64,000 nt of DNA. It comes from a bacterium HR19. Its GTDB lineage: Bacteria; Calescibacteriota; Calescibacteriia; Calescibacteriales; Calescibacteriaceae. The notes beneath the pieces are model-generated. The model ran no database searches. It was not told where the DNA came from and was given only the letters and a program-made list of their open reading frames with translations. The position numbers and the translations under genes are program-made. Shown here one piece after another: positions 14,885 through 16,580 of the stretch (within the stretch, counting starts at the first letter, position 1; every line of letters begins with the position of its first letter). The DNA lies in assembly GCA_002898315.1 (NCBI GenBank), contig BEHV01000001.1, positions 196,620 to 260,619 of the forward strand, given 5' to 3'.

Positions 14885-15760
14885 TTAATCAATCCTGATG
14901 GTTTTTAATTTTATAGATACACTTTCTAATGATTGGATGATATTCAGAAGTTCAGAAGAAATTCTTGCAATTTCAAAAGCCCTTTTCTCTATCTCCTTTG
15001 CAGAAATATTTTGCTCCTCAACAGCAGATGAAATAGAACTCAAATCCTCTGTAGCTTTCTCAGATGATTCCTTTATAATTGAAAAATAGTTATCTATATT
15101 TCTCAGCTCCTGAAGGAGTTCGTTCGCAAAACTTGATATTAAGTTTATCTCTTCCCTCATTTTATTTACAAATTCAGTTAACCGTTGAAGTTTTGATTTG
15201 CTTTCTTTTGATATATGTGATGTTCTTCCTGCAAGTTTTCTCACTTCTTCTGCGACAACAGCAAAGCCCTTTCCGTGTTCCCCTGCTCTTGCCGCCTCAA
15301 TTGTAGCGTTCAAAGCTAAAAGATTTATCTGTTCCGCTATATCTTCTATCTCAGAAAATGAACCAGATATGCCCTTATATATATCAAGTAGCTCATTTAT
15401 GCTATCTGAAAGAAACCTTATCCTCTCTAAACTTCTTATGATAAAATCTATCTTTGATTTCAGAAGTTTATCGTAGTGGCTTATCTCATCTCTGAGCCGA
15501 GCCATCCTCTGATTTATCTCAGATGTTCTCCTTGATATCTCAGAAATAGTAGCAGAAAACTCCTCATAAGAAGTGCTAAAAGTTGAACTGTAAATATTAA
15601 AATTTCTTGCAATCTTGAAAATTATCTCCACAGATTCCCGAAATAGAGAAAGAAATAAGTTAAATTTATAAACATAGGGAGCTACCTTTCTCAAATTCTG
15701 CGCCAGAACCCCTGAATCAGTGTTATCTGAATTTTTTTGCTTCTTTCTCAAAAACCACAT
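14885..15760 (-). CDS. Soluble methyl-accepting chemotaxis protein (MCP signalling domain only; no TM or HAMP)
   Basis: Highly conserved MCP tip ([35 protein letters not shown]). No hydrophobic helices. Confidence 0.8.
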
Positions 15761-15775
15761 ATTCTAATCCCCTCA

Positions 15776-16558
15776 CTAATAACCGTAGATTTCATCTAAA
15801 ATGTCATCTCCACATTTTAGATTTTCAAGCCATGAGAGAAACCTTTTGACATTCTCACCCCTGAATATCGCTCCGTGTTGTGGAGCTATTATATCAACTT
15901 CATATTTCCTAACCATTGAAACCCATTTTCTCAAAACTTTATTGCTTTTCATATACCTTTTGTGAAACCATTCCATATACTTCACATGCTTTTCAAAATC
16001 TTCAACCTCAAAATAAGTATCGTTTTCTGGTATGACAGAAGCCCCTATATCTCCCGAAAAAAGAATCTTTGACCTTGAATCATATAAAGAAAAATTACCT
16101 TCTGAATGAAGAAAGTGGGCGGGAATTATATGAAGACGGGAAAAAGGAAGGTCTATTGTTTTGCCTGAATCTTGAATCGCTTCAACCCCTGATGTATCCG
16201 CCGCTCCAAAATGTGGTAGGAATCTGATCCAAAGACGCGAGATTAAAATCTTTGCGTTCGGACAGACATTCATAAAGATACCTATCCCGGAGCTAACATC
16301 AGGGTCCTGATGAGAATAAAAAATATATCTTATCTGTTCAAGAGAAATATATCTTGAAATGTTTGTAATTATAAAGGGAAAAACGTGAACTCCACCTGGA
16401 TCAAGAAGAACAGCTTCTCTTCCAGAAATTATAAGGTACTGATTCGCTTGAACTTCTCCCGCTCCTTTATACGACCAGCCCAACCAGATAAACTTGTGAT
16501 TTTCATCTGAATACAGCAATTTGCCAGATTCTGCTTCTTGCTCTGAAATACCCTTCAT
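15776..16558 (-). CDS. MBL-fold metallo-hydrolase-like protein, candidate oxygen-binding di-iron protein (ODP) chemosensor partner
   Basis: Metallo-beta-lactamase fold with an H-x-D-x-D (YSHQDPDVSSG) metal motif and later His/Asp ligands. Immediately upstream and co-directional with a cytoplasmic MCP, as in the Thermotoga/Treponema ODP-MCP pairs. Confidence 0.55.
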   Translation of the reverse strand: MKGISEQEAESGKLLYSDENHKFIWLGWSYKGAGEVQANQYLIISGREAVLLDPGGVHVFPFIITNISRYISLEQIRYIFYSHQDPDVSSGIGIFMNVCPNAKILISRLWIRFLPHFGAADTSGVEAIQDSGKTIDLPFSRLHIIPAHFLHSEGNFSLYDSRSKILFSGDIGASVIPENDTYFEVEDFEKHVKYMEWFHKRYMKSNKVLRKWVSMVRKYEVDIIAPQHGAIFRGENVKRFLSWLENLKCGDDILDEIYGY

Positions 16559-16566
16559 TTTGCTTT

Positions 16567-16580
16567 GTGTGTGTGTGTGT
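16567..16580. repeat. (GT)7 dinucleotide microsatellite in the 5'UTR/promoter region of the ODP-like gene
   Basis: tgctttGTGTGTGTGTGTGTattt lies 9 nt upstream of the start codon at 16558 on the minus strand, so the mRNA would carry (AC)7 where a Shine-Dalgarno sequence is expected. Confidence 0.9.

Follow-up and report, generated by a model that had tools for sequence, protein, structure and literature searches.

A length-variable CA repeat at the start of an ODP gene paired with a soluble chemoreceptor: natural alleles in a sister species and a possible translational switch in a hot-spring lineage

Repeat-driven phase variation is textbook knowledge for host-adapted pathogens that evade immunity, such as Haemophilus influenzae, in which (CAAT)n with alternative ATGs in lic1A goes with three levels of expression, and Helicobacter pylori, in which oipA/hopZ are (CT)n contingency loci. 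To our knowledge, hardly any case is on record from free-living thermophiles or from the genes of cytoplasmic sensory proteins. The H. pylori chemoreceptor gene tlpB has a variable G-repeat in its mRNA leader that is targeted by the small RNA (sRNA) RepG (PMC8295292). Among the pairs that have been characterised of a chemoreceptor with the di-iron protein ODP are those of Thermotoga maritima (ODP with Tm14) and Treponema denticola (TDE2498 with TDE2496), as described by Muok et al. (2019, PNAS, cited in PMC7666581). Here, we analysed a 64,000-nt stretch of DNA of the bacterium HR19 (hereafter the window), in which the gene of such an ODP is directly followed by that of a soluble methyl-accepting chemotaxis protein (MCP) and preceded by a CA microsatellite. 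In a sister species the tract is hypermutable, and alleles that are in frame and out of frame with an upstream ATG occur naturally on otherwise identical DNA. We propose, with a probability of about one half, that slipped-strand changes in the tract switch or tune the translation of an aerotaxis sensor.

All features of the locus lie on the minus strand. The ODP gene (15776..16558, 260 aa, GenBank GBD02932.1) is preceded on the mRNA by (AC)7A at 16566..16580, then by AAGCAAA and then by its ATG, the tract ending 7 nt before the start codon (on the plus strand it reads (TG)7T, with (GT)7 at 16567-16580). This CA/TG run of 15 nt is the longest dinucleotide repeat in the window, where the next one measures 10 nt, and it is non-random and longer than expected by chance, since 15 nt was reached in 0 of 200 first-order Markov simulations of the window (maximum 14 nt, once). 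The same (AC)7 is present in an independent Logan assembly of run DRR101362 (contig L001). A first-pass annotation, made from the letters of the window alone, had described the 5' untranslated region (5'UTR) of the gene as consisting of this repeat. The repeat is there as described but is probably not a plain 5'UTR, because it lies inside a 12-codon upstream open reading frame (uORF; MNSKYTHTHKAK, 16555..16593, from translation and frame), of which it occupies codons 5-9. The uORF opens at a second ATG 35 nt upstream of the ODP ATG (16593-16591), spans the whole repeat and ends in a TGA (16557-16555) that overlaps the ODP ATG (16558-16556) as ATGA. Such an overlap is the classic geometry of translational coupling, and coupling is predicted here on that ground.

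As the tract sits between the upstream AUG and the body of ODP, and as each gain or loss of a CA unit changes the distance by 2 nt, the frame relation of the two rotates through three states. When the number of units in the window sequence was varied by simulation (n = 3-12), the upstream AUG was computed to fuse in frame to ODP at n = 6, 9 and 12, whereas the uORF stopped in the ATGA overlap at n = 7, the actual state with its 12 codons, and at n = 10, and a uORF of 30-32 codons overran the ODP start by 53 nt at n = 8 and 11. The upstream ATG and the first four codons are conserved between the lineages of the window and of the sister species despite 14% nucleotide divergence, and the context TTATGAATAsCAAAT of this ATG is kept in the sister species amid a spacer otherwise full of insertions and deletions. 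In Candidatus (Ca.) Calescibacterium, an in-frame ATG is found at the same distance in contig L011, reading MNGLQQKGGVVD-MRGIS..., and dual starts may therefore predate the CA tract. This contig belongs to Ca. Calescibacterium sp. SKYB43, and the in-frame ATG in question stands 36 nt upstream of an ODP start that is led by a Shine-Dalgarno (SD) sequence (L011 9965-10000).

The alleles themselves come from the sister species, an unclassified metagenome-assembled genome (MAG) whose ODP is 87% identical to that of the window (Ca. Calescibacterium sp., 73%). Ten contigs from different samples, taken from JGI, Logan, ENA and GenBank assemblies, were compared, and they differ by 0-1 substitutions over ~2.8 kb. 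Across the ~6 kb that they share, only the repeat varies, apart from one single-nucleotide polymorphism and one 1-nt deletion, both private to contig L171 (JGI 3300038392). The polymorphism lies in ODP, and the deletion, at ~2172, shortens a T-run (CTTTATG to CTTATG) between TATAAT and the upstream ATG and changes their spacing. In frame with the upstream ATG are (CA)8 in contigs L002-L006, (CA)11 in L170 and (CA)17 in L010; out of frame are (CA)9 in L172 and (CA)10 in L169, in three contigs similar to it, and in L171. The slipped-strand idea of the first-pass annotation is thus borne out in the sister species, in which repeat length is nearly the only variable site over ~6 kb across samples.

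The canonical ATG of ODP, which is ancestral since more distant homologues begin at that Met, has become ATA in 10 of 10 sister contigs. The sister ODP is instead called from the upstream ATG through the repeat, as MNTKSHH(TH)nSKIRGVSEEE..., and thereby carries a His-Thr tail, which in the in-frame alleles (L002-L006, L010, L170) runs from SHHTHTHS up to SHH(TH)6S. Metal loading might be affected by such a His-rich extension of a sensor that binds iron. In the cluster at 90% identity, the sister proteins have 273, 275 or 279 aa where the allele is in frame and 247 aa where it is not, next to the 260 aa of the window. The shortest form arises because gene callers fall back to a TTG at L14 in the out-of-frame alleles, and the four protein lengths (247, 273, 275 and 279 aa) for a single sister gene reflect the effect of the repeat on gene callers.

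Like the simple sequence repeat (SSR) contingency loci of pathogens, the locus has a tandem repeat just after a start codon, a frame that shifts with each unit, more than one potential start, and alleles both in and out of frame on DNA that is otherwise clonal, here that of the sister species. It differs from them in that their hosts are host-adapted pathogens rather than a free-living thermophile of a candidate phylum, in that they target surface structures or restriction-modification genes rather than a cytoplasmic O2/Fe sensor, and in that one state of the window is an ATGA-coupled uORF instead of a simple frameshifted ORF. With tlpB it shares a length-variable 5' repeat of a chemotaxis sensory gene, which sets the level of translation in tlpB and is proposed to do so here. 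The tlpB repeat, however, is a run of G alone, lies in a true 5'UTR and acts by sRNA pairing, whereas here a CA tract lies in uORF or N-terminal coding sequence, and no complementary sRNA is evident for it, neither among Rfam matches nor as a long TG-rich partner in the window. As proteins, the two are a new member of the ODP-chemoreceptor family, and what deserves attention are the natural sister alleles, expected to be ON or OFF, on clonal DNA. The proposed regulation is set apart by the thermophile host, the cytoplasmic sensor as target and the ATGA-coupled uORF state, and by a CA tract that probably serves both as enhancer and as counter.

The repeat is not a trait of the ODP family, as a search of 158 other loci yielded no SSR at the 5' end of ODP outside this clade, the exception being a trivial C9/(CA)5, 140 nt upstream, in one Treponema MAG. 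The gene behind it is very nearly certain to encode an ODP, and its neighbour a soluble MCP. The ODP matches Pfam PF19583 over profile positions 1-194 of 194 (E 8.4e-77, 257.9 bits against a cut-off of 27.2) and aligns near full length with the solved ODPs (phmmer; PDB 6qrq/6qwo, E 4.5e-96; 6qnm/6r9n, E 1.6e-86). Residues H83, Q84, D85, P86, D87, V88, H148, H151, D170, Q227 and H228 are invariant across 77 diverse homologues, and HQDPD is the same in the two ODPs with crystal structures, those of T. maritima and T. denticola; the spacing of the H-x-D-x-D motif had been called non-standard in the first-pass annotation, wrongly so in view of this invariance. Mapped onto FprA of Moorella (1ycf), H83, D85 and D87 correspond to the ligands His, Glu and Asp, H151, D170 and H228 to His, Asp and His, and V88 to the fourth ligand (His), which is lost. 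In ODP, a Gln of motif 5 takes the place of the third His of motif 2 (PMC7785958), and the alignment agrees with this description, the Gln being Q227 in the window. The di-iron ligand set is complete, with His/Asp/Asp in motif 2, His in motif 3, the bridging Asp in motif 4 and Gln-His in motif 5, and alignment to the T. maritima ODP, which had been suggested as a check on the Fe ligands, found every metal ligand conserved.

The protein stands alone, with an ODP/Lactamase_B domain as its only domain and no flavodoxin, and the MCP gene lies directly downstream. It is a textbook member of the ODP family in an ordinary ODP-chemoreceptor pair, for which binding of Fe(II) and O2 is predicted by homology. 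Two other identities were considered and rejected: that of a plain metallo-β-lactamase (MBL) hydrolase, on the domain and ligand evidence, and that of a flavodiiron protein (FprA), given the missing flavodoxin domain, the HQDPDV motif and a score of 46.9 bits against a cut-off of 635 for the NCBIfam flavorubredoxin model. Flavodiiron proteins (FprA/rubredoxin:oxygen oxidoreductase) have a homologous MBL-like di-iron domain (1ycf, E 8e-5), but they measure ~400 aa and carry H-x-E-x-D-H, in contrast to the 260 aa and the H-x-D-x-D-V of the window ODP. The GenBank name of GBD02932.1, 'Flavo-diiron protein FprA1', is wrong, as the protein has no flavodoxin or rubredoxin domain, and with relatives labelled 'flavorubredoxin' by JGI the misannotation is propagating; the database entry should be corrected from FprA1 to ODP.

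The MCP gene (14885..15760, 291 aa) begins 15 nt past the ODP stop codon and has an SD of its own, GAGGGG at 15769..15774, which lies 8 nt before the MCP ATG and 1 nt past the ODP stop (direct reading and SD census). Its product consists of the signalling hairpin alone, matching Pfam MCPsignal (E 1.4e-29, 103.6 bits) and no other domain, with a canonical hairpin tip (EAARAGE at residue 155) and no transmembrane segment (highest Kyte-Doolittle mean over 19 residues, 1.14). Its matches in the PDB include Aer2, TM1143 and Tm14 (3g67, E 4e-16), the last being the partner of the Thermotoga ODP. A same-strand MCP follows ODP immediately in 22 of the 128 ODP loci that have enough downstream sequence, in Calescibacteriota-like MAGs, Aquificaceae, Thermotogota and Treponema, lineages that surround the two characterised systems. 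Domain matches, PDB matches, hydropathy and this adjacency census agree with the first-pass view of an ODP and a transmembrane-less MCP paired as in Thermotoga and Treponema. As in those pairs, a stand-alone MBL-fold di-iron protein of ~255 aa with the ligand set HQDPD...H...D...QH is directly followed by an MCP without transmembrane and sensing modules. Unlike them, the window pair belongs to an uncultured hot-spring lineage close to Ca. Calescibacterium, and neither the Treponema and Thermotogota loci examined nor more than 150 other ODP loci showed a 5' repeat or uORF at ODP. The window MCP is only ~35% identical even to the MCPs of its nearest relatives. The ratio of non-synonymous to synonymous divergence (dN/dS) from the sister species is 0.096 for ODP and 0.167 for MCP, and such purifying selection marks both as working rather than decaying genes.

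Upstream of ODP and on the same strand lies lpxD (16632..17708; Pfam LpxD and Hexapep), and the gene order lpxD-ODP-MCP-pdxH-ABC is kept in the sister species. No che or flagellar genes were found among the 52 ORFs of the window in a Pfam scan, so the earlier statement that cheA and cheW are missing from the window holds. Nor do che genes stand beside the ODP-MCP pair in Ca. Calescibacterium contig L011, where a protein made of a CZB (chemoreceptor zinc-binding) domain alone is encoded ~750 nt upstream of the pair (L011 8841-9218).

From these data we infer how the locus might work, namely that the upstream AUG is used, where transcription may start, how expression would respond to repeat length and that the changes would be reversible. 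Ribosomes would begin translation at the upstream AUG of a transcript that is possibly leaderless, and the CA run may assist them. In the state of the window (n = 7), ODP would be made either by termination and reinitiation or by direct SD-independent initiation on an unstructured, CA-rich leader. Loss of one unit (n = 6, and likewise n = 9) would yield an ODP fused to the upstream AUG with a His-Thr tail, and gain of one unit (n = 8) would carry an out-of-frame uORF of 30 codons 53 nt into ODP and should lower ODP synthesis. In the sister species, ODP would depend wholly on the upstream AUG, since the canonical AUG is now AUA, and the switch would there be of the ON/OFF type. With an SD of its own, the MCP gene should be translated in every state, so that the switch would couple the O2/Fe sensor to, or uncouple it from, an ever-present receptor, which would in turn relay the ODP signal to CheA as in the characterised systems. 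The CA run probably also enhances translation from its place just after a start with a short leader or none. Through such three-state control (fused, ATGA-coupled or silenced), subpopulations could respond to oxygen gradients or ignore them while the receptor scaffold is kept. The fullest form of the proposal is a stochastic, heritable bet-hedging switch on an aerotaxis/iron-taxis sensor in a free-living hot-spring thermophile, with the CA tract serving as slippage counter, as enhancer of a leaderless start and as variable His-Thr tail; this form we put forward tentatively and consider doubtful.

The suggestion of a leaderless transcript comes from a pattern that extends over the window. Of the 40 window genes that start with ATG, 10 have an exact TAAAAT whose end lies 5-10 nt before that codon, compared with 5.4% of those ATGs whose upstream sequence is just as AT-rich (p = 4e-5) and 1.1% of ATGs overall, which points to frequent leaderless or very short-leader mRNAs in this genome. 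Starts preceded by TAAAAT include those at 12421, 27235, 31794, 35739, 36642, 39622, 41406, 47970, 50293 and 59513. At the locus itself, two -10-like boxes, TATATA and TATATT (16599..16606), have their ends 7 and 5 nt ahead of the upstream ATG and would constitute a candidate promoter for an mRNA with a very short leader or none. In the sister species, TATAAT stands 9 nt ahead of the upstream ATG. A two-hexamer scan for sigma-70 promoters found no -35/-10 pair in the spacer between lpxD and ODP, and no terminator was found there either; the idea of a promoter with leaderless initiation is hence drawn from the -10-like boxes and the genome-wide pattern. A riboswitch or thermosensor was considered and dropped, as Rfam gave no match at gathering thresholds in the whole window and no significant secondary structure emerged when the 5' region was folded (z = -0.39).

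Of the alternatives to a switch, the one that survives best is that the repeat is mainly a translational enhancer, that is, an unstructured, S1-friendly standby element which replaced the ancestral SD and whose length drifts without regulatory meaning. No SD-like motif is present in the 25 nt before the ODP ATG. The first-pass annotation had singled out the gene for this, and the SD is indeed absent there, but its absence is normal, since 37 of the 52 window ORFs lack an SD-like motif and 15 have one. SD-less initiation is thus the norm in the window, and the unstructured 5' region would suit it. More distant ODP genes, by comparison, carry a canonical SD at the very position of the repeat (AAGGAGGTG in contigs L007 and L011, GAGGAG in L008), and from these strong SDs it follows that the CA run replaced an SD during the evolution of this clade. 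The earlier description of a repeat in place of the SD is therefore true in an evolutionary sense, the SD of the relatives sitting exactly where this clade has its CA run. That CA repeats can enhance translation, as had also been stated, is documented: near or downstream of a start codon they enhance leadered and leaderless translation, according to the account of Martin-Farmer and Janssen (1999) given in PMC9031893, ACA motifs are enhancers as well (PMC3879156), and CA/ACA elements boost translation whether they precede or follow the start codon (PMC9031893, PMC3879156). As in those cases, a CA multimer stands here a few codons past an SD-less AUG that is perhaps near the 5' end of the mRNA; those cases were engineered or enterobacterial, and the enhancer role here is a predicted one. 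We know of no natural length-polymorphic CA tract shown to act as a downstream enhancer. Enhancement by itself leaves unexplained why the sister species lost its canonical ATG and reads ODP through the tract, where length changes the frame, and why the context of the upstream ATG is conserved, and it is compatible with a switch rather than exclusive of one. As a full account of the repeat we regard it as unlikely.

It is also possible, though decidedly unlikely, that the tract is a neutral hypermutable microsatellite with silent alleles, and that ODP starts at the canonical ATG in the window and at the TTG of L14 in the sister species. The fraction of sister alleles in frame, 3/5, is not significantly above the neutral 1/3, gene callers give a 247-aa ORF in the out-of-frame alleles, the first ~12 residues lie outside the alignment with the crystal structures, and more than 150 other ODP loci have no SSR at the 5' end. 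The sister TTG at L14, however, is preceded by no SD and no -10 box, and the ATA of 10 of 10 sister contigs contrasts with a conserved upstream ATG and four conserved first codons. The strong purifying selection on the body of ODP further requires that the protein be expressed from some start, which counts against neutrality. That the lengths are an artefact of PCR stutter or assembler error is very improbable: dinucleotide repeats are stutter-prone in amplified libraries and contig L010 with (CA)17 has only ~1.5x coverage according to its title, but different pipelines recover the same alleles, with (CA)8 in five assemblies from JGI, Logan and ENA and (CA)10 in at least two, a single read easily spans tracts of 16-34 nt, a change of +9 units is not stutter, and the (AC)7 of the window was reproduced by two assemblers. 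Alternating CA/TG tracts are classic Z-DNA formers and this one lies within ~15-30 bp of the -10-like boxes, yet an action at the DNA level, by which Z-DNA or an altered promoter-proximal topology would tune transcription, is scarcely credible, as nothing tested supports it and as the frame relations, the ATGA overlap and the dependence of the sister species on its upstream ATG are left unaccounted for.

Several points weigh against a slipped-strand switch or rheostat. The lineage of the window is represented by one allele, in the GenBank assembly and one Logan contig that probably derive from the same reads; exact look-ups of ODP and LpxD gave only this one Logan contig of 2.7 kb, and a metagenome scan added a single close contig, one known already. 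At (AC)7, this allele is the shortest seen and should slip least. The window also keeps its canonical ATG, which would mean modulation rather than ON/OFF control, with an effect that may be modest, and with direct initiation at this ATG the uORF could be irrelevant. The in-frame share of 3/5 among sister alleles does not significantly exceed 1/3, and OFF alleles of the sister species might yield some ODP from the TTG at L14, a start that drops only residues before the region aligned to the crystal structures. Consensus contigs from metagenomes cannot show reversible switching at high frequency. Since the lpxD-ODP spacer has no -35/-10 pair, the mRNA may be a read-through from lpxD and not leaderless, and since the window has neither cheA nor cheW, the signalling output is assumed from what is described for the family.

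The relatives of the ODP place the organism, which NCBI lists as unclassified, near the Calescibacteriota, and for the valyl-tRNA synthetase of the window the best named relatives, thermophilic Thermodesulfobacteria, are only ~50% identical. Members of the phylum of the nearest named relative were predicted to be flagellated and aerobic and to live along O2 gradients at ~80 °C, and flagellar genes, cheY/cheD and haem-copper oxidases have been reported for this phylum, that of Ca. Calescibacterium, from springs of ~80 °C (PMC4791363). Were the frame changes functional, cells would toggle aerotaxis stochastically as a population strategy in the steep oxygen gradients of hot springs, and the locus would offer a natural test bed for SD-less or leaderless initiation and for enhancement by CA repeats.

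Elsewhere in the window, the block of lpxD, ODP and MCP is flanked by two genes (11809-12384 and 18567-18830) for small proteins with short tandem charged repeats (DRKIEELRI[ES]T... and NRRFEDxN...) and a C-terminal hydrophobic tail, the former having a weak, sub-threshold match to Pfam Apolipoprotein as its only match. A nitrogen-assimilation cluster at 724-11743 encodes a NIR_SIR nitrite/sulfite reductase, a sigma-54 activator, glutamine synthetase, a GAF protein, AmtB and P-II, and most of its genes have a strong SD, unlike the rest of the window. Two sigma-54-dependent activators, one of them with a PAS domain, are encoded at 46581-47885 and 5581-7071 and imply an RpoN regulon in this lineage. 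Three ORFs of 671, 466 and 552 aa (53370-55385, 55399-56799 and 47970-49628) had no Pfam match at E <= 1e-5, and two of them adjoin the gene of an 896-aa GH5 cellulase-like protein (56823-59513).

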